The notes: generated by a model not told the origin, from the sequence alone. A stretch of DNA of 26,114 bases from an uncultured Deinococcales bacterium (GCA_964247135.1 CAXTTL010000043.1:1-26114); one strand, 5' to 3'. Shown: positions 1 to 26,113, numbered from the stretch's first letter. Numbers and translations are program-made.

Positions 1-1158
1 TTTAACAACTGGTCTTCAGATGCCGAGATTGGGGCGCTCAACGTGGTGCGCAATGCCTTCCAAGCCCAGGGTGGCAAATGGACGGACATCACCATTGCCC
101 ACGACACGGGCGCGAGCATTCCACTGATCAACATGTTGACCGGCGGCAACCCGCCCGATGTGTTCATCGAAAGCAACGCTGGCTTGCGGCGCGAACTCTT
201 CAAGCAAGGTTTGCTGAACGATTTTACCGCCTATTACAACTCGCTGAAAGTGGACAAGTACATTCCACCAGCCGTCAAAGACGCCATGATGGTCGATGGC
301 AAGGTGCTCAGTGCGCCCTTGGCAATTCATATCGTCGGCACGGTGTTCTGGAACATTGCGGCGGCGAAAAAAGCGGGCGTCAACCCCAAAGCCTGGAAGA
401 GTATGGACGACATGTTCGGCGACTTTGCCAAGATCAGAAAAGCCGGCATCATCCCGCTGGCAATCGGGGCGCAAAAATGGCAACTCGAGTATTTGCTCGG
501 CTCAATGATGGTTGAAGTCTCGGGCAGCCTGTACGACGATATTTGCGGTTTAAACCCCAAGAAAGCCTCGATTGATTCCAAAGACATGCGCCAAGCGCTG
601 GCATACTTCCGCAGGATTCAAAAAGAAGCTGATCCAGGCAGCGCCAACCGCAACTGGAACGACACCACCGCCCTGGTCATGCGCGGCGATGCCCTGATGC
701 AACTGCACGGCGACTGGATGAAAGGCGAATTCCTGGCAGCCAAAAAGAAGCTCGGCGTCGATTTTGACACCATGCTCGTGCCCGGCGCGGCTGGCGTGCA
801 AGTGACCGTGGACGAGGAAACCTTTTTGAAGCCAGCCAACGAAACCAAAAAGAACTCCATCGAAGCCCTGTTTAAAATCATGCTCACCAAAAGCATCACC
901 GAGAATTTCAGCGTGATCAAAGGCAGCACCCCAGTTCGGCTCGACGCCACCAAAGGCATTGACAAGCACGCCAAACTGGTGCTCGCCGCCCTGAAAAGAC
1001 CAGGCTTTGGACACCCAGTCAAAAACATCACGATGGATCAAGATTGGTCTGGCGCTTTTGCAGACTTGGCGGATGCCTTCTGGAACACGCCAGAAATGAC
1101 CGCCGATCAGTTTATTTCACAAGCCCAAAGTAAGTTTGACGAGGTGTTCAAGAAGTAA
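1..1158 (+). CDS. Sugar ABC transporter substrate-binding protein (family 1, glucose/mannose GtsA-like), 5'-truncated by the window edge
   Basis: Frame is open from position 1 (FNNWSSDAEIGAL...) to TAA at 1156-1158. Motifs GGNPPD, NWNDTTALV and ALMQLHGDWMKGEF resemble glucose-binding SBPs. Confidence 0.88.
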   Translation, partial: FNNWSSDAEIGALNVVRNAFQAQGGKWTDITIAHDTGASIPLINMLTGGNPPDVFIESNAGLRRELFKQGLLNDFTAYYNSLKVDKYIPPAVKDAMMVDGKVLSAPLAIHIVGTVFWNIAAAKKAGVNPKAWKSMDDMFGDFAKIRKAGIIPLAIGAQKWQLEYLLGSMMVEVSGSLYDDICGLNPKKASIDSKDMRQALAYFRRIQKEADPGSANRNWNDTTALVMRGDALMQLHGDWMKGEFLAAKKKLGVDFDTMLVPGAAGVQVTVDEETFLKPANETKKNSIEALFKIMLTKSITENFSVIKGSTPVRLDATKGIDKHAKLVLAALKRPGFGHPVKNITMDQDWSGAFADLADAFWNTPEMTADQFISQAQSKFDEVFKK

Positions 1159-1180
1159 GCTCGAGTATCGCAGTATTTCT

Positions 1181-1220
1181 CCTCTCATCCCCGACCCTTC
1201 TCTCCCAGGAGAGAAGGGAG
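1181..1220. repeat. REP-like GA/CT-rich hairpin, possibly an mRNA-stabilising stem after the SBP gene
   Basis: CCCTTCTCTCC (1195-1205) - CA - GGAGAGAAGGG (1208-1218), preceded by CCTCTCATCCCCGA. It resembles the widespread CCCTCTCCC..GGGAGAGGG dispersed repeats. Confidence 0.6.
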
Positions 1221-1267
1221 TTTGGGTACGATATTGATTCGTGAAATTTAGGTTTTCAGCCGTCACT

Positions 1268-1293
1268 AAGGGCGCAGCAAGCAGCGCCCCTAC
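1268..1293 (-). repeat. GTAG-type REP element
   Basis: Minus strand reads GTAG-GGGCGC-TGCTTGCT-GCGCCC-TT, a GTAG tetranucleotide followed by a GC-rich imperfect palindrome. Confidence 0.6.
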
Positions 1294-1392
1294 AGCTTCA
1301 AAATACATGACAGACGCAAATTAGCAAAAACATTCTGACTATTGAAATCAAGAAATTATTTTGAATCCAATTTTTGCGAACAGGAGAACGAC

Positions 1393-2847
1393 ATGACGAA
1401 CAAAACTGGGGCTTTTGACGTGGTGTGCGATGTGGGAACAGAGCGTCTTCCTGGCAGCACGGTCTATGACGTGCAAACGCAGACATACACGATCACAGGC
1501 AGCGGCAACAACATTTGGGGACTCGAGGATGAATTTCAGTTTGCGGCTTTGAAAATCTCGAGCAATTTGATCCTGACCGTGCAGGCTGGGTTTTTGGGAG
1601 AGGGCAAAAACCCGCACCGCAAGTGGGGCATCATGTTCAGACAGGGTCTCGAGGGTGATGCGGTTCATGCGAACGTGGTGGTGCACGGCGACGGGTTGAC
1701 TTCTTTGCAATACCGCCCAACAAAAGGCGCTGAGACGCTCGAGATCAAAGCCGCGCTTACCACCGCAGATGTGGTGCAACTCGAGCGCTCTGGGAATGAC
1801 ATCATCATGCGGGCGGCAAAATTTGGTGAAGCCCTGATCGAAACTGGACGCATTCAAATTGGATTCTCGAGCGAGATTTACGCAGGGTTGTTTGTTTGCT
1901 CGCACGAAATTGATGTTCTCGAGACCGCCGTTTTTAAGAATTTTCGGCTTGATGTTCCCGCCGCCATTGGGATTGACGGCTACCAACAGACTTCACCAAG
2001 CCGTCTCGAGTTGCTCGAGGTGGAAACTGGCAACCGCAGCATCATTTACTCGAGCACCGCGCATTTTGAGGCGCCCAATTGGTCTCGAGATGGCAAGTAT
2101 TTGCTGTACAACCAGGAGGGCAAAATCTATAAATTTTCGCTCGAGACAAAACAACCCGAATTGCTCAACACGGGCAATGTGACGGCGAACAACAACGACC
2201 ACGGCATCTCGTTTGACGGCACAAAACTTGCCCTCTCAAGCCACACCACGCAGGATGGCAGAAAAGCGGGATCGCAAATTTATGTGGTCGATATTGCTGG
2301 CGGCGAACCCGTCAAAGTCACCGATGATGCGCCGTCGTATTGGCACGGTTGGTCGCCCGATGGCAAGACGCTGGTGTACTGCGCCGAACGGGATGGCAGT
2401 TACGACATTTACGCGATTCCCTCGAGCGGCGGGGCGGAAACCCGCCTGACCGCCTCGCAAGGACTTGACGATGGTCCAGAATTCAGCCCAGATGACAAGT
2501 TTATTTATTTCAATTCGACCCGCACTGGGCAAATGAAAATCTGGCGCATGAAACCAGACGGCAGCGAGCAAGAGCAAGTCAGTTTTGGCAACGGCAACGA
2601 CTGGTTCGCGCATCCCTCACCCGACGGCACACGAATGCTGTACGTCTCGTATCGGCTCAGTGTGCCAGCCGCCAGCCACCCGCACAACGAACGCGTGACC
2701 ATCGTTGAGCAGGAAATCTCGAGCGGCAAGGTGCGGGTTCTGGCGTACCTGTATGGCGGGCAGGGCACGTTAAACGTTGCTTCCTGGAGTCCCGACGGCA
2801 AGTTTGTGGCGTTTGTCTCGTATACTTACGGCGACCCATCAATTTAG
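1393..2847 (+). CDS. TolB-like (PD40-repeat beta-propeller) protein with an N-terminal beta-sandwich domain
   Basis: SD CAGGAG precedes ATG 1393. Repeats APNWSRDG, HGISFDG, HGWSPDG, GPEFSPDD, AHPSPDG and ASWSPDG are present. No signal peptide is evident. Confidence 0.85.
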   Translation: MTNKTGAFDVVCDVGTERLPGSTVYDVQTQTYTITGSGNNIWGLEDEFQFAALKISSNLILTVQAGFLGEGKNPHRKWGIMFRQGLEGDAVHANVVVHGDGLTSLQYRPTKGAETLEIKAALTTADVVQLERSGNDIIMRAAKFGEALIETGRIQIGFSSEIYAGLFVCSHEIDVLETAVFKNFRLDVPAAIGIDGYQQTSPSRLELLEVETGNRSIIYSSTAHFEAPNWSRDGKYLLYNQEGKIYKFSLETKQPELLNTGNVTANNNDHGISFDGTKLALSSHTTQDGRKAGSQIYVVDIAGGEPVKVTDDAPSYWHGWSPDGKTLVYCAERDGSYDIYAIPSSGGAETRLTASQGLDDGPEFSPDDKFIYFNSTRTGQMKIWRMKPDGSEQEQVSFGNGNDWFAHPSPDGTRMLYVSYRLSVPAASHPHNERVTIVEQEISSGKVRVLAYLYGGQGTLNVASWSPDGKFVAFVSYTYGDPSI

Positions 2848-2853
2848 GAAAAC

Positions 2854-3798
2854 ATGCCTGACCTGAGAGCCAAACTCGAGCAATCGCCGCTGGGCATGGG
2901 TGGGTCTTTTTACGGTCTGGATCACGCCAAACTCGAGGGTGAACCAGACATTTTGGCGGCATGGGAAACCGCATTTGAACTTGGCATTAACCATTTTGAT
3001 ACCGCCACGGGGTACGGCGACGGTTATTCCGAACGCCTGCTGGGTCGGTTTATGGCGGGCAAGCGCGAGCAGATTTTTCTGGCATCCAAAGCCGATCTGG
3101 ACATTACCAGCAGCCAAGCGATCTTGGAAGCCATCGATGCCAGCCTCGAGCGTCTGCAAACCGATGTGATCGACCTGTACTACCTGCACTGGTCCCGAAC
3201 CGGTAAAGACATGCGCCCTTGGATGACCGGACTCGAGGCGGCGCGGCAACAGGGCAAAATTCGTTTTGTTGGGGTCAGCAATTTTTCAGTCTCGCAGATG
3301 GAACAACTCTCCGAGGTCGGGCAGATTGACGCCTGTCAAATGGGGTACAACCTGTTGTGGCGTTTTAACGAGCGCGACATTTTGCCGTACTGCCGCCAGC
3401 ACAACATTGCCGTGATCGCCTACAGCGCCTTGGCGCACGGGATTTTGTCGGGCAAATACCCCAGAGCACTCGAGTTTGCCCCAAACGATCAACGCTGGAG
3501 CATTCGGCTGTTCAAACCTGACGCCTGGGCGCAGGTTTTTGAGGCTGTGAAAAATTTCAAACAACTTGCCTCTTCGGAAAACCTGGCACTCTCGCATTTG
3601 GCGTTGCGCTGGTTGTTGCATCAAGCCGATGTTGCCTCGGTATTGGTCAGCAGCAAAAACAAACAACAGGTGCTCGAGAATCAAAAAGCACTTGCCCTCG
3701 AGATTCCAGACCGTGTCTTTGCTGAACTGACCACCCTCAGCGACCACCTGATCCAAGCCATTCCCGACGACAGAGACCTCTTTGGGTATCAACCCTAG
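2854..3798 (+). CDS. Aldo/keto reductase
   Basis: GINHFDTATGYG, ASK, SLERLQTDVIDLYYLHW, GKIRFVGVSNF and AYSALAHGILSGK give the AKR catalytic D/Y/K/H residues. Confidence 0.95.
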   Translation: MPDLRAKLEQSPLGMGGSFYGLDHAKLEGEPDILAAWETAFELGINHFDTATGYGDGYSERLLGRFMAGKREQIFLASKADLDITSSQAILEAIDASLERLQTDVIDLYYLHWSRTGKDMRPWMTGLEAARQQGKIRFVGVSNFSVSQMEQLSEVGQIDACQMGYNLLWRFNERDILPYCRQHNIAVIAYSALAHGILSGKYPRALEFAPNDQRWSIRLFKPDAWAQVFEAVKNFKQLASSENLALSHLALRWLLHQADVASVLVSSKNKQQVLENQKALALEIPDRVFAELTTLSDHLIQAIPDDRDLFGYQP

Positions 3799-3811
3799 AA
3801 TTGGAGCGAAC

Positions 3812-4774
3812 ATGCCAGACTCGAGCCTTCCAGACCAAAGCATTTTTCAGATTTGCGTGATCGTCGATGACCTGGAGCGGTACGGCGAAAATTACCGCAA
3901 AATACTTGGCTTTGACGTGCCGAGCGAGGTTCAAACCACGCACACTTTTGAGCACACGCAGGCACAATATTTCGGACAACCGATGAACGCTCGAGCCAAA
4001 ATTGTCAGCTTTATGCTGGGCAACGTCGCATTCGAGTTGCTGCAACCGCTCGACGAGGGCAGTGTTTGGATGGATTACCTGAAACAACACGGCGCGGGAA
4101 TTCATCACATTGCGTTCAACGTGCCGCGCATCGCGCCTGCCGCCGCGTTTTTTGCCGACCACGGTTACCAGGTCATCCAGCAGGGTTTGTTCACGGGACG
4201 CACGGGCATGTACGCCTACCTGAACACCGACAAAGACTTGGGTCTGACCACCGAATTGCTCGAGCATTACCAAAACACCACTCGAGCCACCACACCAATA
4301 TTCTCGAGCGACAGAGGCATTGGCACGAACGTTGTAATTCAAGTTGGAATTGTGACCAACGACATTGCGGCGATGGCAAAGCGTTATCAAGAGGTCTTGG
4401 GTTTACCCAAACCAAGCACGCAAGAAACTCCAGGCTATCAGATCACCGAAGCCAGATTCAACGGCGCACCAACCGAAGCCACAGCCAAACTCGCCTTTTT
4501 TGATTTTGGGCAAGCGCAACTCGAGTTGATCCAACCCGACCAGATTCCCAGCGTTTGGCGCAACGACCTGAATGCCTTTGGCGACGGCACACACCACATT
4601 GCCTTTAAAGTTGAAAGCACCCAAAAAGCCGTGGCTCACTTTGCCAAACACGGCATCGAGGTGAGTCAACAAGGCTATTACGGTGATCGCAGCGGCATGT
4701 ACACCTATATGGGCAGCCAGACTGCGCTTGGGGTTGTGATTGAACTGCTCGAGAATTTTCCCGAACCCCGCTAA
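3812..4774 (+). CDS. Tandem two-module VOC-family protein (methylmalonyl-CoA epimerase/glyoxalase-like)
   Basis: SD GGAG precedes ATG 3812. The two homologous halves each carry Q(I/V)-EL(L/I)QP-HHIAF-ELLE metal-ligand motifs. Confidence 0.88.
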   Translation: MPDSSLPDQSIFQICVIVDDLERYGENYRKILGFDVPSEVQTTHTFEHTQAQYFGQPMNARAKIVSFMLGNVAFELLQPLDEGSVWMDYLKQHGAGIHHIAFNVPRIAPAAAFFADHGYQVIQQGLFTGRTGMYAYLNTDKDLGLTTELLEHYQNTTRATTPIFSSDRGIGTNVVIQVGIVTNDIAAMAKRYQEVLGLPKPSTQETPGYQITEARFNGAPTEATAKLAFFDFGQAQLELIQPDQIPSVWRNDLNAFGDGTHHIAFKVESTQKAVAHFAKHGIEVSQQGYYGDRSGMYTYMGSQTALGVVIELLENFPEPR

Positions 4775-4786
4775 ACCAGGAGGCTT

Positions 4787-5116
4787 ATGAAATGGATTAC
4801 AAGGGAAAAAGTCAAGGTTGATCGTGTCGCCTGCCCGTGGTTGATTGCCAAATTCGTGGACCAAGACGCCGATTTTTTGTTCGTTCCAAACGATCAAATC
4901 ATGGCGGTGGCGGCACTAGAGAATGCGATTCCTTACGATGTCAAGGATGTCGAACTCGGGCTTCACGGGCAGGAGTGTAGTTTTGACGCGATTTGCCGCA
5001 AGTACAACTTGTGGGAAAAAGACGCTGCACTGGTGCGGCTGGTAAAAAATATCAATAGTGCAGACACCGACAACGCGCTCTGGAATCAACCCGAGGCGAT
5101 TCCCAATTCAAAATAA
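4787..5116 (+). pseudogene. Chromate-resistance ChrB-type domain protein, apparently C-terminally truncated
   Basis: SD AGGAGG. MKWITREKVKVDRVACPWLI..F.D..A.FLFVP and CSFDAI are family motifs. The ORF stops a few residues after 'QPE', before the usual C-terminal helices. Confidence 0.65.
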
Positions 5117-5140
5117 CCTTTGGTTTGTTGCTTTGGGAGA

Positions 5141-5177
5141 GATGAAGCTTGGTAAAATACCAAGCTTCATCTTTTTT
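5141..5177 (+). terminator. Intrinsic terminator between convergent genes, possibly bidirectional
   Basis: Perfect 14-bp stem GATGAAGCTTGGTA-AAA-TACCAAGCTTCATC followed by TTTTTT. Confidence 0.85.
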
Positions 5178-5187
5178 GCCGCTCGAG

Positions 5188-6684
<1,497 letters not shown>

Positions 6685-6733
6685 GGGTGCTCGGGGGTTG
6701 GTCTTGGCGGGCGTTGGAATGGGGTCGCTGACG

Positions 6734-7498: not shown

Positions 7499-7629
7499 GG
7501 TTTGGTGTCCTTGTTTGTGCGTTTGTGTTGTTATCTTGGTTGGTGTTTGATGATTTGGGACTTTTTTTAGAGTATACCGAATTGGGCGAGCCTGCATTTG
7601 GCGTGTTTGTGACCATCAATCACAAAGGC

Positions 7630-7658
7630 TTGACAATTGTTTGAATTTGAGTTACTTT
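7630..7658 (+). promoter_or_regulatory. Sigma-70-type promoter for the RbsACB-like operon
   Basis: TTGACA (7630-7635), 17-bp spacer, TACTTT (7653-7658). Confidence 0.7.
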
Positions 7659-7695
7659 TGTCGCATCTTGTTTAACTCTGTTTGAAATTGTTTGA
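7638..7695 (+). promoter_or_regulatory. Candidate DeoR operator: phased TGTTT(G/A)A direct repeats
   Basis: TGTTTGA 7638, TGTTTAA 7669, TGTTTGA 7679 and TGTTTGA 7689, with exact 10-bp spacing for the last three. Another TGTTTGA lies at 7544. Confidence 0.65.
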
Positions 7696-7861
7696 ATCAC
7701 CAGTCGGCGTTCATGTCTGCAACTTGGACAGCTTCACCTTGACCACCCGAGGGGATGCCCCTCGAGCGGCGGTGTCAACTTCACTTTTTAAAGTCCAAAT
7801 TTTGGGGATGCCGCCCAATTCAAGACCCAAACCAGCCAGATCAGGGCACCAGAAAGGGATC

Positions 7862-9463
7862 ATGATTTCCAGTTCAGCGCTTCTCACCCCACCCCCAGCG
7901 CCGCAGCCGACGCAAGCCTTGCTCGAGATGCGCGGCATCAGCAAACGATTTCCGGGCGTGCAGGCGCTGGCGGAAGTCAATTTCAGCGCCCACGCCCATG
8001 AAGTCCATGCCTTGATGGGCGAGAACGGCGCGGGCAAATCCACCCTCATGAAAATCCTGACCGGCGTGTACTCGCACGACGGCGGTCAAATCTTGCTGGA
8101 GGGCAAAATCACCCATTCCAGCGACCCTCGAGCCGCCCAGCGCCACGGCATTGCGATCATCCACCAAGAACTCAACCAAGTGCCGGAGCTGAGCATCCGT
8201 GAAAATTTCTTTTTGGGACGCGAAAAACGTGGCGCGTTCGGCATTCTGGACAACGAATTGATGCGAATTGAGACCAAACGCTGGCTCGAGCAGGTGGGTT
8301 TGAAACTCAACGTCGACCGACCACTGCGCGGCTTGCGGGTTGCCGAACGTCAATTGCTCGAGATTGCCAAAGCCATCAGTTTACGCGCCCGCATTCTGGT
8401 GATGGACGAACCCACCACGGCACTGAACGCCGAAGAGGTCGCCAGGTTGTTCACGATTGTGCGTCAATTGCGCGACGACGGACTGGCGGTGATTTACATC
8501 TCGCACCGCATGGACGAGATTTTTGCGATCTCTGACCGTGTGACCGTGCTGCGCGACGGACAACTCGCCGGAACCCGAGTCACCGGCGAACTCAGCCGAG
8601 ACGTGCTCATTACGTTGATGGTCGGACGGGAACTGCCAGATTTGTACGCCGAACACGTCACCAAAGATGCCCCATCAGACCCGAACAACCCAAGACCAGA
8701 GGTGATTCGGGTCAGCCATTTAAACGTGAAAGCCAAACCGGGCGGGCAACCCCTGCACGACATCAATTTTCAGGTTCGTGCCGGCGAAATCCTCGGGCTG
8801 GCGGGTTTGCTCGGTGCTGGGCGCACCGAACTGCTCGAGGCACTCTACGGCGTGCCTCACCCTGCCAACATCAGCGGCGAGATTTACCTGGACAACCAGC
8901 CCGTGCGCATCACCTCCCCAGGGGCTGCGATTCGGGCGGGCATCGGGTTTATCACCGAAGACCGCAAACACCAAAGCCTGGTGCTGGTGCGTTCCGTCGC
9001 CGAAAACATCAGTTTGGTCGGACTTTCTAAATTTGTTCGTGGCGGACTGATCAACCTCAAGCTCGAGGAAAAAGCGATCGGTGACGCCATTCGCACCCTG
9101 CGCGTCAAAACCCCGACGCCCAACACGCCGATTGCGTCGTTGTCGGGCGGCAACCAGCAAAAGGTGGTGTTCGCCAAATACTGGCTGACCAAACCCAAAC
9201 TCTTCTTGCTCGACGAACCCACGCAAGGCATCGACGTGGGCGCAAAAGCCGAAATTTATGCTTTAATTCGAGAACTCGCCAAATCAGGAACCTCGGTGAT
9301 TCTCGCCTCGAGCGAAATGCCAGAATTGCTGATGCTCTGTGACCGTATTCTGGTCCTGTGCGACGGTCGAATCACCGCCGACCTGCCAAGGATCGAAGCC
9401 ACCCAAGAAAAAATCCTCGATTTCGCCACGCGCTTTCGCGCCCCCTCGGAGGTTCACGCATGA
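7862..9463 (+). CDS. Sugar ABC transporter ATP-binding protein (RbsA-like)
   Basis: AAAGGGA precedes ATG 7862. Motifs GENGAGKS, MDEPTT, ISHRM, TEDRK, LSGGNQQK and DEPTQGIDVGAK. Confidence 0.95.
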   Translation: MISSSALLTPPPAPQPTQALLEMRGISKRFPGVQALAEVNFSAHAHEVHALMGENGAGKSTLMKILTGVYSHDGGQILLEGKITHSSDPRAAQRHGIAIIHQELNQVPELSIRENFFLGREKRGAFGILDNELMRIETKRWLEQVGLKLNVDRPLRGLRVAERQLLEIAKAISLRARILVMDEPTTALNAEEVARLFTIVRQLRDDGLAVIYISHRMDEIFAISDRVTVLRDGQLAGTRVTGELSRDVLITLMVGRELPDLYAEHVTKDAPSDPNNPRPEVIRVSHLNVKAKPGGQPLHDINFQVRAGEILGLAGLLGAGRTELLEALYGVPHPANISGEIYLDNQPVRITSPGAAIRAGIGFITEDRKHQSLVLVRSVAENISLVGLSKFVRGGLINLKLEEKAIGDAIRTLRVKTPTPNTPIASLSGGNQQKVVFAKYWLTKPKLFLLDEPTQGIDVGAKAEIYALIRELAKSGTSVILASSEMPELLMLCDRILVLCDGRITADLPRIEATQEKILDFATRFRAPSEVHA

Positions 9464-10681: not shown

Positions 10682-11656
10682 ATGAACCGCATCACCAAAG
10701 GTTTACTGACCATCATGGGCATCACCACGCTTGCCGCCATGGGCTTGCAGGCAACACAGGCGCAAGGCAAGACCTACACCATCGGATTCTCGCAACTGGC
10801 ATTTGACGATCCGTGGCGCGTGGCATTCAACAACCAGATGACCAAAGCCGCCGCCAAACACGCCAACTTCAAACTGACCATCGTCAACGCACAACGCGAC
10901 AGTTCCAAACAGATTGCCGATGTCGAAAACCTGATCCAACAAAAAGTGGACGTGCTGATCATCTCGCCAAACGAGGCTGCGCCACTGACCGCGATTGTCA
11001 AAAAAGCCTACGACGGCGGCACACCCGTGATTGTCCTTGACCGCAACGTCCTCGGCGACGCCTACACGATGTTCATCGGCGCGGACAACAAGTTCATCGG
11101 CAAAAAAGCCGGCACATACGTCGCCACCTGGTGTCGCAGCCAAAAACTGATTCCCTGCAACATCCTCGAGGTTTCGGGCTTGTCCGGTTCGACACCAGCC
11201 CAAGAGCGCGGCTCGGGATTCCGTGAGGGCATTCAAAGCAACAAAAACGCCAAAATTGCCGCCAGCGTCACCAGCGAATGGCAAAAAGCCTTGGCTGTGC
11301 CCGCCGCCGCCGCCGCCTTCCAAGCCAACAGCAAAATCAACGTGGTTTACGCCCACAATGACGATTCTGCCGAAGGGGCTTACATTGCCGCCAAGAATGC
11401 CAATTTGGACTTGAAGAAAATGCTGTTCCTGGGCATCGACGGTCTGCCCGACAAGAACGGTTCTATCGTCAGCATTTTGCAAGGTCGTCTGGGCGCGTCG
11501 TTCGTTTATCCAAACGGTGCCGCCGAAGCCATCGAATGGGCTTCTAAGATTCTCGAGAAGGGCGAAAAACCACCCAAGAAAATCACGCTCGGCACCGATG
11601 AGATCAACACCAAAAACGCTTTGGAAATGTGCGCCAAGTACGACTGCGAGAAGTAA
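10682..11656 (+). CDS. Sugar ABC transporter substrate-binding protein (RbsB-like)
   Basis: AAGGAG SD and SPase I-type signal peptide (..QATQAQ). Motifs IGFSQ, KQIADVENL, VDVLIISP, PVIVLDR, IGADN, VYAHND and GIDG. Confidence 0.95.
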   Translation: MNRITKGLLTIMGITTLAAMGLQATQAQGKTYTIGFSQLAFDDPWRVAFNNQMTKAAAKHANFKLTIVNAQRDSSKQIADVENLIQQKVDVLIISPNEAAPLTAIVKKAYDGGTPVIVLDRNVLGDAYTMFIGADNKFIGKKAGTYVATWCRSQKLIPCNILEVSGLSGSTPAQERGSGFREGIQSNKNAKIAASVTSEWQKALAVPAAAAAFQANSKINVVYAHNDDSAEGAYIAAKNANLDLKKMLFLGIDGLPDKNGSIVSILQGRLGASFVYPNGAAEAIEWASKILEKGEKPPKKITLGTDEINTKNALEMCAKYDCEK

Positions 11657-11691
11657 TTTTTCACTGACAACCCTTCTACCTCCTCCCCGCA

Positions 11692-11724
11692 AACCCCGAC
11701 GGAACAATGTCGGGGTTGTTTTTT
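11692..11724 (+). terminator. Intrinsic terminator of the sugar ABC operon
   Basis: AACCCCGAC-8 nt loop-GTCGGGGTT followed by GTTTTTT. Confidence 0.85.
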
Positions 11725-11829
11725 GCATGTCTCGAGAGGGCAGCGTCAAGGCAAACTCGAGGTGGTGAATGTGGGATTTATTGCTCAGTATCGGCATTGT
11801 GATCTGGTCACTTATGTTGCACGTCCTTT

Positions 11830-11956
11830 AAAAGTCAATCCTGACATACTCGTGCCAATAAACCTCAAGGAACTGAAGGCTGGGCATGACAATCAACTGA
11901 AGGCTGGGCATGACAAGCAACTCGAGGCTACTGTCGAGGAATTGGGGATCAAGTAA
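11830..11956 (+). pseudogene. Probable remnant of the C-terminus of an S41-family peptidase
   Basis: Translates KVNPDILVPINLKELKAGHDNQLKAGHDKQLEATVEEL, resembling the PDI.V...G.D.QLE.AVE.L tail of S41 peptidases. No upstream gene body is present. Confidence 0.45.
11871..11929. repeat. 24-bp tandem duplication (two copies plus a partial third)
   Basis: AACTGAAGGCTGGGCATGACAATC / AACTGAAGGCTGGGCATGACAAGC / AACTCGAGGCT. Confidence 0.95.
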
Positions 11957-12088
11957 ACGTTCAAATCATATGGCAACAATACGGTGGCAGTATTTAAGTA
12001 CCTCGAGAAACCCTAAGAAGACTGGCTTCCGTTCAGCCATGCCCTTTTAAAGCATGTCCGAATATTTTTGAACACCGTCGCTCGAGCC

Positions 12089-12832
12089 TCACAACCGTCC
12101 AGCTTCAATAATGCTTTTCAAAAATTGTTGCGTTCGTTCGTTTTGTGGGTCACTAAAAATCTGTGCTGGCGCTCCCTCTTCATGCACCACGCCGTTGTAC
12201 AAAAAGCAGACCTTGCTCGAGACTTCCTTGGCAAAGCCCATCTCGTGGGTTGCCAGCAGCATGGTCATGCCCTCGTGCGCCAGTTCGCGGACAATGTTTA
12301 AAACCTCACTCACCAGTTCTGGGTCGAGCGCCGAGGTGATTTCGTCTAACAGCATCACCATCGGTTCCATCGCCAGGGCGCGAGCAATGGCGATGCGCTG
12401 TTGCTGCCCGCCCGAAAGCTGATCGGGGTAAGAGAGCGCCTTGTGATCCATCCTGACGCGTTTCAGAAGCTCGAGGGCGCGTTGTTCGGACTCCAATTTG
12501 GACATTTTTAAAACCTGTCGCGGCGCGAGGGTCAAATTGTCCATGACGTTCATGTGCGGGAAGAGGTTAAAGCTCTGAAACACAATGCCCACATCGCGGC
12601 GCAAACGGTTGACATCGACGCCAGGACCTGACACGCGGTCATCGTTGATCCGAATTTCGCCACCCGTGATGTCCTCGAGTCCGTTGATGCAGCGCAAGAG
12701 CGTGCTTTTGCCGCAGCCCGAAGGTCCGATCAGGCACACGACCTGATGCTCCTCGACGTTTAAATTGATACCGCGCAACACCTCGACGTTGCCGTAACGC
12801 TTGTGAACATCGTTGATCTCGAGAAAACTCAT
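12089..12832 (-). CDS. Polar amino-acid ABC transporter ATP-binding protein (GlnQ-like)
   Basis: GPSGCGKS, VFQSFNLFPH, YPDQLSGGQQQR, LDEITSALDPELV and THEMGFA. Confidence 0.96.
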   Translation of the reverse strand: MSFLEINDVHKRYGNVEVLRGINLNVEEHQVVCLIGPSGCGKSTLLRCINGLEDITGGEIRINDDRVSGPGVDVNRLRRDVGIVFQSFNLFPHMNVMDNLTLAPRQVLKMSKLESEQRALELLKRVRMDHKALSYPDQLSGGQQQRIAIARALAMEPMVMLLDEITSALDPELVSEVLNIVRELAHEGMTMLLATHEMGFAKEVSSKVCFLYNGVVHEEGAPAQIFSDPQNERTQQFLKSIIEAGRL

Positions 12833-13959: not shown

Positions 13960-14057
13960 GCTGACCCGCCCGGAGCTGAAGATCATTCGGTTTTAGGGTC
14001 TTCATGTTGCCAAGAGTTTTACCATGAATTGAATCATGCCATCAAAACTCGAGCATC

Positions 14058-14093
14058 AAAAACCCCCAATCCGATCACTCGAGATTGGGGGTT
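14058..14093 (-). terminator. Terminator-like hairpin between the SBP and permease genes
   Basis: Minus strand reads AACCCCCAATC-11 nt-GATTGGGGGTT-TTT. CTCGAG 14078-14083 lies at the stem-loop junction. Confidence 0.75.
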
Positions 14094-14114
14094 GTCCTCA
14101 TTGCCAATTGCTTC

Positions 14115-16204: not shown

Positions 16205-16442
16205 GGCAAAACCTCCAAATGAAAGAAGCTCGAGAAGCGTTGACGGTTTTTCAGTCCGGTCAGCGTGCCACGAAACCATTTGGCAGCAAATCCAAACCCC
16301 AAGATTGATGCGGGCTGTGCCGTTCACAAAATGGCAGGTTTTGATTGTTCATTGCCATCCTTGAGTTGCTGTTTTGATTCTACTCGAGTGATTTGAGAAT
16401 GTCTTGTCAAACTCGAGATTCAAGAAATTTTTCTCAGTGGTT

Positions 16443-17200: not shown

Positions 17201-17227
17201 GACAATATTTTACTCGACACTCGAGGT

Positions 17228-21012: not shown

Positions 21013-21139
21013 AAATGTCCTTTCAAGACTCGAGTTGAATGACCGAGTTCCGCAAACGGTAGCATATCAAAGTTTGTGTGAATGTCTGATGCGCCATTTG
21101 ACTGATCTGGCTCGAGAAAATGTTGCGTAAACTAAAACC

Positions 21140-21667
21140 ATGCCACAGTTTGAAATGACCAGCCGTGACGTGCTCGAGTTTTTAGCACTGACCCAAGCGC
21201 ACGGTATTGAAATTTGGATTGATGGCGGTTGGAGTGTAGATGCGCTCTTGCAACGTCAAACCCGAGTTCACAGCGACCTGGACATTGCCCTTTATCACCA
21301 AGACGTTCCCAAACTCCGCGCACTGCTCGAGGCTCGAGGGTTTAAAGACGTGCCCAGGGACGACACCAGAGATTGCAATTTTGTGCTGGGAGATGACTTT
21401 GGGCATCAAATTGATTTTCATTCGTTTGTGTTTGACGCCGAAGACAAGATTATTTTTGGTGTCCCGTATCCTCGAGAATCGCTCACGGGAATAGGTTCAA
21501 TCAATGGTTTTCAGGTGAAATGTATTTCGCCTGAATGGTTGGTGAAATTTCACACGGGTTACGAGGTAGACATTGACGATTACCGCGACGTGCTGGCGTT
21601 GTGTGAACATTTTGGGTTTGAATTGCCGCTCGAGTTTGAAAAGTTTAAGCAAAAAATCTTGAAATAA
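21140..21667 (+). CDS. Lincosamide nucleotidyltransferase / aminoglycoside-2''-adenylyltransferase-like protein
   Basis: WIDGGWSVDALL..QTR.HSDLD, IDFH, and CISPEWLVKFHTGYE.D..DYRDV.AL. Confidence 0.85.
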   Translation: MPQFEMTSRDVLEFLALTQAHGIEIWIDGGWSVDALLQRQTRVHSDLDIALYHQDVPKLRALLEARGFKDVPRDDTRDCNFVLGDDFGHQIDFHSFVFDAEDKIIFGVPYPRESLTGIGSINGFQVKCISPEWLVKFHTGYEVDIDDYRDVLALCEHFGFELPLEFEKFKQKILK

Positions 21668-21681
21668 ACTCGAGTTTATTT
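21662..21681. repeat. Perfect 20-bp palindrome spanning two convergent stop codons
   Basis: AAATAAACTCGAGTTTATTT. Confidence 0.95.
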
Positions 21682-22395
21682 GCAACCTGGTGTTGCCATT
21701 GTTTTTGCATTTTCAATTGCTTTTTTAAGACTTGGCACATGGAACTCGGCTCGTTCCGCGTCTGTGGTTTGTGTGTCAACCACGTACAAACGGGTGCAAT
21801 CGTTTTTCCAACTGCTGTATTGTGTGCCAAACTTTTGTGCTTTGCGCGAGTACATGAGCGCTCGGTCAAGGGTAAGTGCATATAAATTGCGTGGGTCAAA
21901 GTTTTTTGATTTTACTTGGTTTTTGTCTTCGATTCCCATTGCGATAGACGCCAATTCGTTCGCCAGCATGAAATGCTGGACACAATCGCCATGCTGAAAA
22001 ACCAGAGCGATGTTTAGAAAATCCTCAACTGTTACAGCTTGGGCAATCAGGGGCAATAACTTCTGACGACGAATTTGATCGCCGTGTATCCCATCAGGGT
22101 CTGGTTTGCCACGGCGTGGCACTTGGTCTTGTTCTGCAATGATCGCAAGCTGCTTTGACAATGCTGGATTTGGTTTTTGGCTCGAGACATCTGATGGAAT
22201 CATTAAGCCTTTTAAAGACGGCAAACAACTGCCACCACGAGAAACATTTGTTGGGAAATCCATCATCGTTTTTGGGATTGGATTTGGCTTGATGGTATCT
22301 GGTAAAGATGCGGCTTTGAAAGCCTCGAGCACTGGACCAGTTTGCGCCAGAACAGAACCCAGGAATATCAAAACCAAAATCAAAGTTCGAGTCAT
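21676..22395 (-). CDS. Secreted protein of unknown function, DUF6624-like
   Basis: Signal peptide MTRTLILVLIFLGSVLAQ. Motifs QDQ..R, LVFQHG and YALTLDRAL...AQKFGTQY. TATGCT lies 7 nt upstream of ATG 22395. Confidence 0.75.
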   Translation of the reverse strand: MTRTLILVLIFLGSVLAQTGPVLEAFKAASLPDTIKPNPIPKTMMDFPTNVSRGGSCLPSLKGLMIPSDVSSQKPNPALSKQLAIIAEQDQVPRRGKPDPDGIHGDQIRRQKLLPLIAQAVTVEDFLNIALVFQHGDCVQHFMLANELASIAMGIEDKNQVKSKNFDPRNLYALTLDRALMYSRKAQKFGTQYSSWKNDCTRLYVVDTQTTDAERAEFHVPSLKKAIENAKTMATPGCK

Positions 22396-22459
22396 GTTGA
22401 AAAGCATACTCAAGAAATTCTCGAGAATCGTGAATCTTCTAGAAATTCCAGCTTGAGCC

Positions 22460-23143
22460 TCAAAGCCGTACACCAAAGGTTTTTTGCAAGCCCACACGCC
22501 CTGTTTCAGTCATGCGCAAAGCCCGAGCATTTGGCAACCTGACCAACCATTTTAACTCGAGCATTTTGCTGGTGATGGCGCGTCCCAACGCGCCGCCAAG
22601 GTGATGTTTGCGTTCCGTCCAATCCAAACAGGCTTTGGCGAAATGTCGTTGAAGTGCCAGTGTCTCGAGGTCAAGTCCAAAAGCTTCAAAGGTCTTCCAG
22701 CCCGTGGGCGTCAGGTTGAATTGCAAACCATCTTGCTCGAGGCAACCCGATTTTTTTAAAGCTTGCACGAATTCCACACCCAACCATCCTGCCAAATGGT
22801 CGTAACAGGTTCGGGCAAAGCACAAGTCGGTGTCGCTCGAGTTTCGTTTTCTGGGTTGCGGGGCAATCACCATCAACGCCTCGAGCGCTGCCGCAACTTC
22901 CAAACTCGAGAGTCGGTAATACCGATGCCGCCCGTGCGATTCGACGCTCAACAATTTCCCCTCGAGCAACTTTTGCAAATGCGTGCTGGCGGTCTGAGGG
23001 CTGACGCCAGCCAGTTCTGCCAATTCGCCTGCGGGAAGCGCCAGACCGTCCATCAGGGCGCAGAGCATCGCGGCTCGAGCGGGTTCGCCCATGAGCGCCG
23101 CGACGCTGGACAGGTCGGTTTCAAGCTGTGACTCGAGGATCAT
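22460..23143 (-). CDS. ArsR/SmtB-family regulator, long form with C-terminal RTCYDHLAG domain
   Basis: PARAAML.ALMDG..AGELA..AGVSPQTASTHL, GRHRYYRL, ARTCYDHLAG and CLDWTERKHHLGG. Confidence 0.93.
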   Translation of the reverse strand: MILESQLETDLSSVAALMGEPARAAMLCALMDGLALPAGELAELAGVSPQTASTHLQKLLEGKLLSVESHGRHRYYRLSSLEVAAALEALMVIAPQPRKRNSSDTDLCFARTCYDHLAGWLGVEFVQALKKSGCLEQDGLQFNLTPTGWKTFEAFGLDLETLALQRHFAKACLDWTERKHHLGGALGRAITSKMLELKWLVRLPNARALRMTETGRVGLQKTFGVRL

Positions 23144-23171
23144 GATTTCAGTTTAAAGCCAGTGGTTTGAA

Positions 23172-23197
23172 AATGATTCGACGCGCATCGAAACATT
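23172..23197. promoter_or_regulatory. Candidate operator (inverted repeat) for the ArsR regulator
   Basis: AATGaTTCGA-CGCGCA-TCGAAaCATT overlaps the expected -35 zone of the regulator's own promoter (-10 TAAACT at 23150-23155, minus strand). Confidence 0.65.
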
Positions 23198-23208
23198 GCT
23201 TGTTGGCT

Positions 23209-23247
23209 TGTGGATAAGCTCGAGCTTGTGGATAACCCTGTGGATAA
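23209..23247 (-). promoter_or_regulatory. Cluster of three perfect DnaA boxes (TTATCCACA)
   Basis: TGTGGATAA at 23209-23217, 23227-23235 and 23239-23247, all in the same orientation and intergenic. Confidence 0.85.
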
Positions 23248-23308
23248 ATCAAGCGTCAACCGAAACAATGACCATTTGCGTAGACTGAGCTTGCACTGGG
23301 GGGTCAAG

Positions 23309-24469
23309 ATGTCAACCTCAACTCGAGCTTTTCTGACGGCACTCGGTTTGGCATTCGGTCCGACGGTCGCCTTGGGCTTTGCGCGTTTTGCTTACGCGCT
23401 GCTGCTTCCCGCCATGCGTGCCGAGTTGCACTGGACGTACTCCTTGTCTGGCGGTATCAACACCGCCAACGCTTTGGGATATTTGATCGGCGCACTGCTC
23501 GCCACGCCAATCATGCGAATGGTCGGCACGAAACTCGCGTTTATTGCCGCCTTGTTCGTGACCGCGCTGGCACTGATTGGGCTTGGTGCAAATGACACGT
23601 ATGCTTGGCTGATCGTGGCTCGAGGTTTGGCGGGAGTGGGCGGCGCCATCATTTTTATTGCCGGCGGCGCACTGACCGCCCATGCCGCCTCGAGCGCCCC
23701 GCCCAGGTTGGCTGGCATCATGCTGACCACGTATTACGCTGGCGCTGGCTTCGGGATTTTCTTATCGGGCATCAGCTTGCCGTTCGCGCTGGCAGCCAAC
23801 ACCAACTGGCGTACCTTGTGGGTCATTCTGGGACTGGCGAGTTTTGTGGTCAGCCTGATCTCGAGTCAAACCGCCTGGGGCTTAAAAACGCATCAGACGC
23901 AAACCAATACGGCTGGAACGTGGTCGGCTCGAGGTTTGATCTTGCCGCTGCTGGCGTATGCCTGTTTTGCCCTCGGCTACATCGCCTACATGACTTTTTC
24001 GGTGGCGTTCATCAAGGCAAACGGGGCGACCACGCTGCAAATTGCGGTTTTCTGGGCGACCCTCGGGTTGGCTGCCATGCTCGCCCCGAGGGTGTGGAGC
24101 GTCCCGATCACCCGTTGGCGCGGCGCTCGAGGGATGGCGGCTGCCATGACCAGCTTGGCGCTCGGGGCAGTTTTGCCGCTCGTCTCGAGTCAATTTGCGT
24201 TGATGCTGGTTTCGGCGGTGTTGTTCGGCGGGTCGTTCTTGTCGGTGGTGGCTTCCACAACCGCGCTTGCACGCCGTGACCTTCACTCGAGCGCCTGGAA
24301 TGCGGGCATTGCCTTGTTTACCACTGTCTTCGCGGCGGGACAAAGTTTTGGACCACTGATTTCTGGGGCGCTCAGCGACGGTGCAGGGGGGTTACGCGCA
24401 GGTTTGGCATGGTCGGCAGGCGTGCTGGCGTTGGGTGCGCTGATCGCGTTTTTACAACCTGCAACATAG
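23309..24469 (+). CDS. MFS transporter, YbfB/YjiJ-like
   Basis: LGFARFAYALLLPAMR..L.W, NTANALGYLIGA, GYIAYMTF and GQSFGP, with about 12 hydrophobic segments. ATG 23309 follows GGGGG, with -10-like TAGACT at 23281. Confidence 0.92.
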   Translation: MSTSTRAFLTALGLAFGPTVALGFARFAYALLLPAMRAELHWTYSLSGGINTANALGYLIGALLATPIMRMVGTKLAFIAALFVTALALIGLGANDTYAWLIVARGLAGVGGAIIFIAGGALTAHAASSAPPRLAGIMLTTYYAGAGFGIFLSGISLPFALAANTNWRTLWVILGLASFVVSLISSQTAWGLKTHQTQTNTAGTWSARGLILPLLAYACFALGYIAYMTFSVAFIKANGATTLQIAVFWATLGLAAMLAPRVWSVPITRWRGARGMAAAMTSLALGAVLPLVSSQFALMLVSAVLFGGSFLSVVASTTALARRDLHSSAWNAGIALFTTVFAAGQSFGPLISGALSDGAGGLRAGLAWSAGVLALGALIAFLQPAT

Positions 24470-24594
24470 GCAATCCCACGCCAATACGTGCTATCGTGCC
24501 TCGAGTGACTTTAACCTATCGAGCGTTGGACGAGCCTTGAGAACAGTATTTTTCGGCTCGAGACAGCACAGGTCACAAAATACAGGAGAACATC

Positions 24595-25479
24595 ATGCGG
24601 GTTTTTGTGACTGGCGCAAGCGGCTTTATCGGCTCTGGGGTTGTTCAGGAGCTTCTTCGGGCGGGTCATCAAGTCACTGGGCTGGCGCGGTCTGATGCGA
24701 GTGCCAAGGCGCTGCGTGCGGCAGGCGCTCAAGTCCAATTGGGTTCGCTTGAGGACTTGGAAGGTTTACGAGGCGGCGCATCCACCGCAGATGGTGTGAT
24801 TCACTTGGCATTCAATCATGATTTCTCAAAAATTCTTTCGTCGGTTCGAGAAGATCAACGCGCCATCGAAGCCCTCGGTTCTGGACTGGCAGGATCAAAC
24901 CGTCCCTTGGTGGTTGCGGCTGGGATTCTTGGACTCAAACCAGGTCGTCTGCTCAGCGAGAACGATACCGCTCGAGCGCTTCGCAAGTCGGAGCAGACCG
25001 CACTTGGATTGGTCTCCAAGGGTGTCAACGCCTCGGTGGTACGCCTGCCTCCAACCGTACATGGTGAGGGCGATAAGGGTTTTATGGCGTTGCTCGTTGC
25101 CACCGCACGAAAAAAGAAGGTTTCGGGATACCTGGGAAACGGCTCAAATCGGTGGTCATCGGTTCACCGACTCGATGCCGCCCAACTGTTCAGGTTGGCG
25201 CTCGAGAAGGCTCAACCATCTGCCAAATACAATTGCATTGCTGACGAGGGTGTGCCTTTTAAAGACATTGCCAATGTTATTGGGCAGCGCTTGAAGATAC
25301 CCGTGGTCAGCAAACCTCGTTTGCTGGCAATGCCCCATTTTGGTTGGCTTGGTTTACTGGTTGGAATGGACTGCCCCGCCTCGAGCCAGCAAACCCGAGA
25401 ATTGCTGAAATGGCAGCCGCAGCAACTTGGGTTGATTGCAGACCTCGAGCAAGGGCATTACTTTGACCAGCCAACATAA
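24595..25479 (+). CDS. Atypical SDR / NAD-dependent epimerase-dehydratase family oxidoreductase
   Basis: CAGGAG SD. MRVFVTGASGFIGS, DGVIHLAFNHDF, VVRLPPTVHG and VHRLDAA. Confidence 0.93.
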   Translation: MRVFVTGASGFIGSGVVQELLRAGHQVTGLARSDASAKALRAAGAQVQLGSLEDLEGLRGGASTADGVIHLAFNHDFSKILSSVREDQRAIEALGSGLAGSNRPLVVAAGILGLKPGRLLSENDTARALRKSEQTALGLVSKGVNASVVRLPPTVHGEGDKGFMALLVATARKKKVSGYLGNGSNRWSSVHRLDAAQLFRLALEKAQPSAKYNCIADEGVPFKDIANVIGQRLKIPVVSKPRLLAMPHFGWLGLLVGMDCPASSQQTRELLKWQPQQLGLIADLEQGHYFDQPT

Positions 25480-25480
25480 G

Positions 25481-26113
25481 TCATTCCAAACTTTCAACTT
25501 TTGTCCGTAACGCCGCGACTTGCTCGAGCAAATGTCTGGAATCGTTCTGGCTTTTCTCGAGCCTTTCGGTCTCAGAGCGAATAAACCGAGTGTACGGTCC
25601 ACTGGCTTCAAGCAACCTGGCGGTGGCACGTTCGGACTCGAGTTTGTGCTCGCGGGTTAAAACCTCGTGCAGCCTGTCGCGCAAGGTATTGATGCGCGTC
25701 TCGAGGTCGGCTTTGGCTTGGGCGCGTTTGCGGGGCAGAATGAACAAGCCCATGCCTGCCGCCGCCAGCCCCAACAGAATGCCTGTGAAATCAAGCAGGA
25801 AGCCTCCTAACACCGTTACGAGCACCGCGCCGAGTCCAATACCCCCAGCCCCGAACGCGCCCGATTGCAGGACGGCACTTTGGGCTTCGTTGGCAAGGCG
25901 TTTGCTGAACTCCTCGCGGTTGAAGCCTTCAACCTCGTTTTGCACCGAAGTTCCCAAACCCTCGAGTAAGGCTTTGCGGTCGTAATCAAATTTTGCACCG
26001 CGCAACAAGGCTTCTCGGGTGTCGCCATCTTTGGTTTCAGTGCTGGCTCGAGCGCTTAAAAACGCCATCGTTTCATCCCAGAATTTGTGGTTTCTTGCCA
26101 AAAAACGGTCGAT
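25481..26113 (-). CDS. C-terminal part of a probable bacterial dynamin-like protein; 5' end lies outside the window
   Basis: Frame is open to the window edge. A helical region flanks a Gly-rich hydrophobic hairpin ending DFTG...GLFILPRKR..AK. The GTPase domain is not visible. Confidence 0.6.
   Translation of the reverse strand: MDRFLARNHKFWDETMAFLSARASTETKDGDTREALLRGAKFDYDRKALLEGLGTSVQNEVEGFNREEFSKRLANEAQSAVLQSGAFGAGGIGLGAVLVTVLGGFLLDFTGILLGLAAAGMGLFILPRKRAQAKADLETRINTLRDRLHEVLTREHKLESERATARLLEASGPYTRFIRSETERLEKSQNDSRHLLEQVAALRTKVESLE

Follow-up and report, generated by a model that had tools for sequence, protein, structure and literature searches.

The window analysed here is a stretch of 26,114 bases that makes up the whole of contig C43 in the genome assembly (G000) of an uncultured Deinococcales bacterium. 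It carries genes for a solute-binding protein, a PD40 beta-propeller protein, a sugar-binding protein and several ABC ATPases, and dispersed along it, in genes and in the spacers between them, is the 6-base palindrome CTCGAG. This word is a highly iterated palindrome (HIP-type element) of the family of uncultured Deinococcales to which the window belongs. To our knowledge, all HIPs described so far are cyanobacterial, and each goes with a methylase. The best known of them, HIP1, has been studied for about thirty years without an agreed function. Passages of PMC5861425 describe it as 15- to 300-fold over-represented, conserved between genomes and unresolved in function.

CTCGAG in the window and across its genome

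The window holds exactly 143 copies of CTCGAG, one per 183 bases, compared with 7.4 expected from base composition and a mean of 4.66 (maximum 12) in 100 dinucleotide-preserving shuffles. With genes taken from our own crude gene caller, 66 copies are read as CTC-GAG (Leu-Glu), phases 1 and 2 account for 29 and 27, and the remaining 21 lie in 1,837 noncoding bases, a density of 11.4 per kb. The runner-up among 6-base palindromes, AAATTT, has 19 copies in the window, and the HIP1 word GCGATCGC has none there and two in the whole genome. The original prediction had reported about 143 copies counted by hand against about 7 expected, spread over all three codon phases and dense between genes, with no other 6-base palindrome iterated and GCGATCGC unseen. 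The exact figures agree with it on each of these points, and its description of CTCGAG as a HIP1-like highly iterated palindrome is borne out by the genome.

The excess is not confined to the contig that forms the window. The G000 assembly comprises 5,091,702 bases in 386 contigs (52.65% GC, 84% complete) and contains 33,925 copies, that is, about 6,660 per Mb or one per 150 bases. This is 24.8 times the number expected from composition, the highest ratio among all 4,096 hexamers; the next palindromic hexamer, TTTAAA, reaches 3.7-fold. Against Markov expectations the excess is 35-fold (first-order) and 14-fold (second-order). The highest-order (fourth-order) model leaves only 1.24-fold, but the 5-mers on which it builds consist mostly of the motif itself (G follows 88% of CTCGA), for which reason we rejected it as a control. 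All 297 contigs of at least 5 kb hold between 2.56 and 10.5 copies per kb (median 6.8), and a single one of 2,358 2-kb segments lacks the word. Counts in these segments are over-dispersed (variance 18.8, mean 13.3). Comparison with Rfam ruled out that the motif-poor segments represent rRNA or other Rfam families.

The distances between neighbouring sites in G000 are close to geometric, with a mean of 148 and a standard deviation of 143 bases. The closest spacing is 7 bases; a spacing of 6, which would generate GAGCTC, never occurs, and the genome has no copy of that word. The hexamer is preceded by G and followed by C in 39% of all sites, and at wholly noncoding sites A stands at position -3 with a frequency of 0.43 and G at -1 with 0.355. 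There is thus a weak symmetric flank preference, GAnG before and CnTC after the hexamer, in noncoding DNA too. A longer unit, GCTCGAGC, is only mildly preferred (4,222 of 33,886 sites) and was rejected, as was an AvaI-like degenerate form CYCGRG, given that CCCGAG occurs at 1.43 times and CCCGGG at 0.07 times expectation. The near-random flanks indicate that the unit is the hexamer, neither a longer repeat nor a mobile element.

Coding constraint does not account for the signal. The 4,433 genes called, which cover 85.7% of G000, hold 28,785 copies (6.58 per kb), with 18,013, 4,201 and 6,571 in phases 0, 1 and 2, and 7.12 per kb are found outside genes. The density climbs to 8.97 per kb in short gaps between genes (40-300 bases) despite a GC content of 45.5%, which is about 45 times our composition estimate. 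The gap between the sugar-binding protein gene and the neighbouring ABC ATPase gene of the window (Table 1) is a case of such enrichment without coding constraint, as its five copies lie in intergenic DNA. Shuffling synonymous codons within each gene leaves 3,996 of the 28,785 copies, and shuffling codon order leaves 1,682. A stricter shuffle, which preserves protein sequence, codon usage and dinucleotides alike (no dinucleotide count changed by even one), leaves 12,908 copies when done within genes and 5,058 when pooled over the genome. If anything, these controls understate the excess, since the motif has itself left its mark on codon usage and protein sequence. The argument, first made from the window, that codon or amino-acid bias could not suffice therefore extends to the genome: the excess persists through every shuffle, the dinucleotide- and codon-preserving one suggested at that stage included, and is densest in intergenic DNA.

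The imprint on the proteome is deep. Leu before GAG is encoded by CTC in 91.7% of 19,638 cases, compared with 32% before GAA. Likewise, Glu after CTC is GAG in 93.7%, whereas after five other tested Leu, Ile and Val codons it is GAG in 25-44%. Glu after TTC is also GAG in 96.7% of 1,069 cases, a preference that stems from avoidance of TTCGAA and not from the CTCGAG motif. TTCGAA (131 copies, 0.12 times expectation) and GTCGAC (121 copies, 0.09 times) are strongly avoided in G000, and the remaining NTCGAN words have ordinary frequencies. Among dipeptides, Leu-Glu is the most enriched, with 23,366 pairs at an observed-to-expected ratio of 2.35 (Glu-Leu, 1.01), and CTC-GAG spells 77% of these pairs. 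The CTCGAG signal has thus reshaped the proteome, overriding synonymous codon choice and even amino-acid sequence.

Around gene starts and stops the density is flat, except in the first 20 bases after stop codons, where it rises to 13.8 per kb. The copy that directly follows the solute-binding protein gene of the window is an example of this peak 3' of stop codons. A promoter or other regulatory-site reading is ruled out by the flat density, which is broken by this modest post-stop peak alone.

Carriers of the word and conservation of its sites

The closest RecA match of G000, at 82% identity, comes from a GenBank metagenome-assembled genome (MAG) entered as 'MAG: Deinococcales bacterium' (locus L016); the remaining RecA matches are at most 69% identical and belong to other phyla. 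The original prediction had supposed a host outside the Cyanobacteria, and this nearest named relative agrees with it. In the 21 kb around the L016 RecA gene there are 161 copies of CTCGAG (7.64 per kb). At the other 79 RecA loci the median density is 0.05 per kb and the highest value 1.25.

We sampled 121 genomes of the order, of which 19, in five genera and including G000, belong to the family of the window and 102 to four other families. All 19 family genomes carry the signal, with 12,028-35,442 copies or 4.3-6.8 per kb (by rounded genome sizes), and the 102 others range from 0.01 to 3.1 per kb. One of the other families, f3, is depleted in every one of its 26 genomes (0.01-0.27 per kb; for example G014, G083 and G092). 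In 40-kb pieces of four further members of the window's family, with GC contents of 45.3, 54.8, 59.8 and 60.6%, CTCGAG is the top hexamer at 14-29 times expectation, and codon choice depends on the neighbouring codon in the same way. As the word ranks first across 45-61% GC, the signal is independent of base composition. The force behind CTCGAG was already acting before the five genera sampled from the family diverged. A weaker version, at 6-9 times expectation in small samples of 20-40 kb, is found in the sister-family genomes G116, G024, G068 and G019, where Leu is CTC in 66-80% of cases before GAG and in 8-58% before GAA or GAC.

The recurrence of the signal in all 18 other independently assembled family genomes and in the named GenBank MAG leaves no room for an assembly artefact; one of the 19 assemblies (G011) is a closed single contig, with 23,515 copies. 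Matching Logan contigs had small word shares (0.05-0.20) and were short pieces of relatives, mostly below 95% likeness; among the 40 differences listed in these pieces, one falls in a CTCGAG site. Among the matches listed in a scan of viral sequences for three clustered sites, most are phage contigs of high GC that contain GAGCTC as often as CTCGAG, and the list offered no usable phage of the family.

Individual sites are conserved well beyond the background. Comparison of 336 kb of a congener (G005) with G000 yielded 235.7 kb of alignment at 86.1% identity, in which 1,326 of 1,709 G000 sites are kept. Retention is 765/933 in phase 0, 156/220 in phase 1, 261/341 in phase 2 and 144/215 in intergenic DNA, compared with 45.7, 45.5, 45.6 and 38.0% for control hexamers in the same contexts; that is, 67-82% by context versus 38-46%. 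In the window, compared with five congeners, 173 of 222 sites are kept (controls, 41.9%). Where a conserved Leu-Glu is written CTCGAG in G000, both codons are kept in G005 in 765 of 840 cases. Where it is written otherwise, the codons are kept in 58 of 159 cases, and 54 of the 159 are CTCGAG in G005.

Words that differ from CTCGAG by one base behave as passing states: 358 of 951 (37.6%) are unchanged in G005, and 124 of the 951 are full sites there. Among single-base differences at sites, folded on the palindrome, transitions at positions 1, 2 and 3 number 44, 55 and 45, and each transversion has 1-10 cases; the even spread of transitions indicates that all six positions count equally. C>T at the CpG position, with 45 cases, does not exceed the other transitions (44 and 55), and the congeners accordingly carry no signature of 5-methylcytosine. 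Genome-wide, the nine pairs of one-mismatch words occur at 0.08-1.74 times expectation, within the ordinary range of hexamers. In particular, the variants with T are undepleted (CTTGAG/CTCAAG at 1.17 times and TTCGAG/CTCGAA at 1.74 times), and the depletion of near-misses that the original prediction thought worth looking for is not seen in them.

The force therefore favours the exact hexamer at the DNA level. It is weak and directional and acts with about equal strength on every site, preserving the sites that exist and converting near-misses into new ones. That the exact word is in excess and its neighbours are ordinary points to a reversible process in which a site allele has a slight advantage over any non-site allele. 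At equilibrium, the population-scaled advantage per site would be about 3-4 (ln 25-45), or about 3.2 genome-wide and about 3.8 in short intergenic DNA, a size that would be expected from weak selection or biased gene conversion. A drive acting on a single type of mismatch is disfavoured, because the T-variants should then be drained, and because gains at one position could not balance losses at six.

Methyltransferases, restriction and the possible role of CTCGAG

Passages of PMC4390886, in which Elhai describes HIPs at 500-2,500 per Mb, give each a cognate methylase and propose a repair ratchet. In G000, we find two C5 methylases, four or five of the PF01555 family and one Dam-like D12 enzyme. 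A type I HsdM, a 1,499-residue type IIG protein and two MmeI-like proteins are also encoded, but were set aside as CTCGAG methylases because they are not palindrome-type enzymes. Five palindrome-type methylases were traced through the 18 other family genomes, most of whose assemblies are incomplete; the methylase on contig C189 and a 466-residue protein on C4 stood outside this tracing, and gamma-class methylases were surveyed in G000 only. The C5 methylase on contig C14 has orthologues in 3 of the 18 (88, 73 and 70% identity), that on C178 in 3 (83, 79-89 and 50%), the PF01555 methylase on C36 in 2 plus a fragment, that on C207 in 4 plus a fragment, and the Dam-like methylase in 6. G008, which is 91% complete and has 21,883 sites, has no match to either C5 query or to the Dam-like query, and the closed genome G011 has no PF01555 match. 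These two site-rich genomes thus share none of the C5, PF01555 and Dam-like enzymes, and no traced class is common to them. No TaqI_C domain was found in G000. Two contig-end-cut PF01555 pieces on C207 and C4 overlap by 47 residues at 89% identity, and represent either a single gene split in assembly or a pair of close duplicates. The homologue of the C36 methylase in a sister family (54% identity) has an in-frame TGA.

Nucleases of the XhoI family (PF04555) occur in 6 of the 121 genomes of the order, and in none of the 19 genomes of the window's family or the 26 of family f3. The avoidance of CTCGAG in f3 must therefore stem from a different enzyme family or from past exposure. In two of the six carriers, both of family f4, a 340-residue PF01555 methylase adjoins the nuclease gene (Table 1). 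Relatives of this methylase with 63-73% identity occur in other families, and in the window's family only short matches at 33-47% were found (25% in G000). One carrier, G015, still has about 1.7 CTCGAG per kb, and the nuclease gene of G026 is broken by stop codons. Vsr was found in none of the 19 family genomes. The original prediction had suggested an orphan methyltransferase of XhoI/PaeR7I specificity together with methyl-directed repair. With orthologues of the traced methylases in at most 6 of 18 genomes, and with no XhoI-family nuclease and no Vsr in the 19, the search for a CTCGAG methyltransferase that it recommended found none conserved across the family. Gene content as predicted from these assemblies thus lends no support to a conserved orphan CTCGAG methylase, although different enzymes of the same specificity could substitute for one another.

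About 20 other palindromic hexamers are nearly absent from G000, each compared with 1,100-1,700 copies expected. GAGCTC has 0 copies, GGGCCC 1, CGGCCG 3, AGGCCT 4, CGTACG 5, GGATCC 7, CCGCGG 11, CAGCTG 15, GCATGC 17, ACTAGT 18 and AGATCT 25. GAGCTC is absent from the window and numbers 0-25 copies in 15 of the family's 19 genomes, and Glu-Leu is never written GAG-CTC in G000, though both codons are abundant. The missing palindromes, together with the many patchily distributed methylases, suggest that DNA of this lineage often meets diverse restriction enzymes.

Genes without a site are more frequent than expected among the longer ones: 11 of at least 900 bases lack CTCGAG, where a Poisson expectation gives 1.2. 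Four of at least 1,200 bases lack it, and three of these (Table 1) have 26-36% GC and foreign codon usage, and are probably recent acquisitions. The C189 methylase gene is alike, with a GC content of 0.40 and no site in 777 bases. ComEC and DprA are encoded, which shows a capacity for DNA uptake and nothing more.

With this in mind, we tentatively favour, while judging it rather less than probable, the reading of CTCGAG as a self-DNA watermark acting in DNA exchange. A sequence-specific protein would read the hexamer as a mark of the family's own DNA, whether at uptake, in protection from a nuclease or at a recombination step. Alleles that bear the site would then be preferentially transmitted or retained, which would amount to a molecular drive; methylation may or may not form part of the reading. 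Such a drive has been suggested for the Haemophilus and Neisseria uptake sequences and, more recently, for HIP1. A watermark fits the restriction-rich setting, the site-free foreign genes, the peak after stop codons, the presence of ComEC and DprA, and the precedent of HIP1, which was recently proposed as a watermark for uptake and is reported to raise transformation (in passages of PMC13756078). According to the same passages of this 2026 paper, HIP1 correlates with DNA-translocation proteins, and methylation-dependent gains in transformation are cited (PMC13756078). If the Chi-like nuclease variant discussed below is counted in, a watermark of one kind or the other gains a little in credibility, and would still fall somewhat short of an even chance. 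The fuller proposition, that a HIP-type watermark arose independently outside the Cyanobacteria and works without a dedicated methyltransferase, the hexamer being read by a protein, we consider unlikely, if worth entertaining.

Several observations weigh against a watermark. No reader protein, uptake receptor or CTCGAG-specific nuclease was identified, and DNA uptake in Thermus and Deinococcus has been described as sequence-independent. Since ComEC and DprA occur widely, they do not discriminate. As a specific uptake signal, a word of six bases would be short: the uptake sequences of other bacteria are non-palindromic, have 9-12 bases and occur about once per kb, whereas CTCGAG is a 6-base palindrome at 6.7 per kb. 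Spacings of 7-17 bases are about half as common as expected, a depletion of close pairs that simple drive at independent sites does not predict. Conservation and an equilibrium excess would be equally expected under any selected DNA-level function or under biased repair or conversion. Finally, a methyltransferase may be missing from the incomplete assemblies, or may be replaced by non-orthologous enzymes of the same specificity.

Comparison with known uptake sequences, the uptake signal sequences (USS) of Pasteurellaceae and the DNA uptake sequences (DUS) of Neisseriaceae, also has a positive side. These are short words over-represented genome-wide, which a drive from biased uptake and recombination is held to maintain. 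They lie in genes, where they distort peptides, and are enriched near gene ends, and the corresponding marks of CTCGAG are the 2.35-fold Leu-Glu content and the density of 13.8 per kb after stops. Uptake bias has been shown by experiment for USS and DUS, whereas for CTCGAG it is a proposal.

CTCGAG resembles HIP1 in being a short GC-rich palindrome that is dispersed singly in genes and spacers, with conserved sites and a lineage-wide occurrence. It differs in that HIP1 is an octamer, GCGATCGC, of cyanobacteria and CTCGAG an unrelated hexamer of Deinococcales, and in that no conserved cognate methylase was found for it. Deviations from HIP1 concentrate at the outer bases and its one-mismatch variants are conserved, whereas differences from CTCGAG are even over positions 1-3 and its variants are not conserved. 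The density of about 6,660 per Mb also exceeds the 500-2,500 per Mb that passages of PMC4390886 give for HIPs. The same passages describe a closer likeness in Calothrix PCC 7103, where a 6-base palindrome, GGCGCC, replaces HIP1 as the top over-represented word (PMC4390886). GGCGCC is cyanobacterial, reported from single strains and said to have a cognate methylase, whereas CTCGAG is family-wide with no shared methylase seen.

The main alternatives are two, and we regard each as improbable to much the same degree. The first, methylation-linked biased mismatch repair as in Elhai's HIP model, holds that a methylase marks the site and that short-patch repair, directed by methylation or context, turns mismatched near-sites into full ones, so that sites accumulate and no function is needed. 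Each alternate cyanobacterial HIP goes with a cognate methylase, according to passages of PMC4390886. Our own data add that G000 encodes at least five palindrome-type methylases in a family rich in them, and that biased repair would affect coding and noncoding DNA alike, in agreement with what is seen. A partial parallel is very-short-patch repair of Escherichia coli (CCWGG/CTWGG), in which repair tied to a methylase shifts word frequencies. There the effect is small and the T-variant is depleted, whereas CTCGAG is 25-fold in excess, its T-variants are undepleted and Vsr was not found in the family. Further evidence against biased repair is that the traced methylases are unconserved (3, 3, 2, 4 and 6 of 18), that G008 and G011 share no class, that the XhoI-linked methylase is only weakly matched in the family, and that there is no 5-methylcytosine signature. 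Our flux estimate also suggests that a drive of one mismatch type could not sustain a 25-fold excess that decays at six positions.

The second alternative is that CTCGAG is the selected binding site of a dimeric nucleoid or chromosome-organising protein, its density being kept for compaction or architecture; Xu, Lawrence and Durand gave such a reading for HIP1 (in passages of PMC5861425). Sites are conserved in all contexts, intergenic DNA included, as they are for HIP1 (PMC5861425, likewise in part). For HIP1, Xu et al. (2018) also reported a periodic distribution at 10-90 kb. The weak symmetric flank preference in noncoding DNA hints at contacts beyond the hexamer, and the depletion of close pairs could reflect site exclusion. 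On the other hand, spacing is otherwise geometric and counts in 2-kb segments are over-dispersed rather than even. One-mismatch variants are also unconserved, unlike those of HIP1, and no candidate protein was found.

Less likely than either is a Chi-like self marker, by which CTCGAG would attenuate or redirect a nuclease or defence system, so that DNA poor in the site would be degraded, and the host and its resident mobile DNA would be selected to carry it. The contrast between the family's own DNA (6.7 per kb) and unrelated RecA loci (median 0.05 per kb) would suit this, as would the few recently acquired low-GC genes without a site; known Chi sites, however, are asymmetric, skewed in orientation and far rarer. 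As a restriction target, CTCGAG is the recognition sequence of XhoI and PaeR7I, but restriction targets are normally avoided, and the XhoI-family nuclease was found in none of the 19 family genomes. That there is no DNA-level signal at all, and that the word is a by-product of codon, amino-acid or dinucleotide bias, of palindrome avoidance or of assembly or binning, is hardly credible: CTC and GAG are common codons, high-GC relatives reach 1-3 copies per kb partly through codon usage, and the highest-order Markov excess is small, though its sub-words consist of the motif; yet CTCGAG is densest in noncoding DNA, survives every shuffle, governs codon choice by neighbour and recurs in all 19 assemblies, one of them closed, and in the GenBank MAG.

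The CTCGAG signal is apparently undescribed. The original prediction allowed that CTCGAG richness might already be noted for some Deinococcota, but we found no report of the signal in the full-text literature, a search whose scope left out subscription journals and supplementary tables. In the passages retrieved from work on Deinococc- taxa and palindromes, CTCGAG appears only as a methylated motif of other organisms. In those retrieved on over-represented words, it appears in honey-bee intergenic DNA and in a table of haloarchaeal methylase target motifs.

The functions of HIPs have been hard to separate because the known cases are cyanobacterial and methylase-linked, so that repair ratchet, architecture and uptake signal compete as explanations. 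CTCGAG offers an independent second case, with a different word, a higher density, a wide GC range (45-61%), graded weaker versions in sister families and no shared methylase apparent, and with these properties comparative tests become possible. If the watermark reading is true, the word would be a family-wide currency of exchangeable DNA in restriction-rich Deinococcales that are probably transformable and polyploid. The drive would have rewritten about a tenth of intergenic sequence space and more than doubled Leu-Glu content. Iterated palindromes would then be a general bacterial device to which methylation is inessential. In practical terms, CTCGAG distorts codon and dipeptide statistics and can serve as an easy marker in binning and in the detection of foreign DNA, and in these genomes an XhoI site occurs every 150 bases, whereas SacI sites are all but missing.

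Other features of the window and table of coordinates

Table 1. Coordinates of CTCGAG features in the window and of related loci. Positions without a genome handle are those of the window.
Feature	Position	Strand	Details
Dispersed CTCGAG array	484..26052	both alike (palindrome)	143 exact copies; first 484-489, last 26047-26052
Copy after stop codon	1160..1165		starts 2 bases past the stop codon of the solute-binding protein gene (1-1158)
Densest run	1522..2145		12 copies in 624 bases, within the PD40 beta-propeller gene (1342-2847, +)
Pair of copies 7 bases apart	6462..6474		inside ABC ATPase gene (5188-6684, -)
Intergenic gap	11657..12088		5 copies, at 11731, 11756, 11921, 12002 and 12081 (11.6 per kb); flanked by sugar-binding protein gene (10682-11656, +) and ABC ATPase gene (12089-12832, -)
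Intergenic gap, 128 bases	13987..14114		2 copies (14048, 14078)
Second pair, 7 bases apart	21326..21338		inside gene 21140-21667 (+)
Two short dispersed repeats	1157-1345		cores about 1176-1227 and about 1259-1345
ABC ATPase paralogues	5188-6684; 7682-9463	-; +	similar DNA at 6019-6135/8471-8590 and 6544-6686/7917-8059
Site-free low-GC gene	G000:C70:14265-16154		
Site-free low-GC gene	G000:C4:51606-53231		
Site-free low-GC gene	G000:C135:1928-3271		
XhoI-family nuclease and methylase (L169)	G015:C1:73699-77256		
XhoI-family nuclease and methylase (L170)	G105:C8:34983-38546		
Contig-end-cut PF01555 piece	G000:C207:3-824		
Contig-end-cut PF01555 piece	G000:C4:2-397		
C36 methylase homologue, sister family	G013:C4:1796117-1797046		in-frame TGA

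The gene that contains the second close pair encodes a 175-residue protein with an aminoglycoside-2''-adenylyltransferase-like Pfam domain (PF10706, E 6.7e-25). The two short repeats between the solute-binding protein and beta-propeller genes recur at 80-100% identity, on both strands, on dozens of contigs, both in G000 and in all of the five congeners, and are a REP- or MITE-like small repeat family. Two of the ABC ATPase genes of the window are divergently placed paralogues, whose DNA is 74-78% similar over the two segments listed in Table 1.

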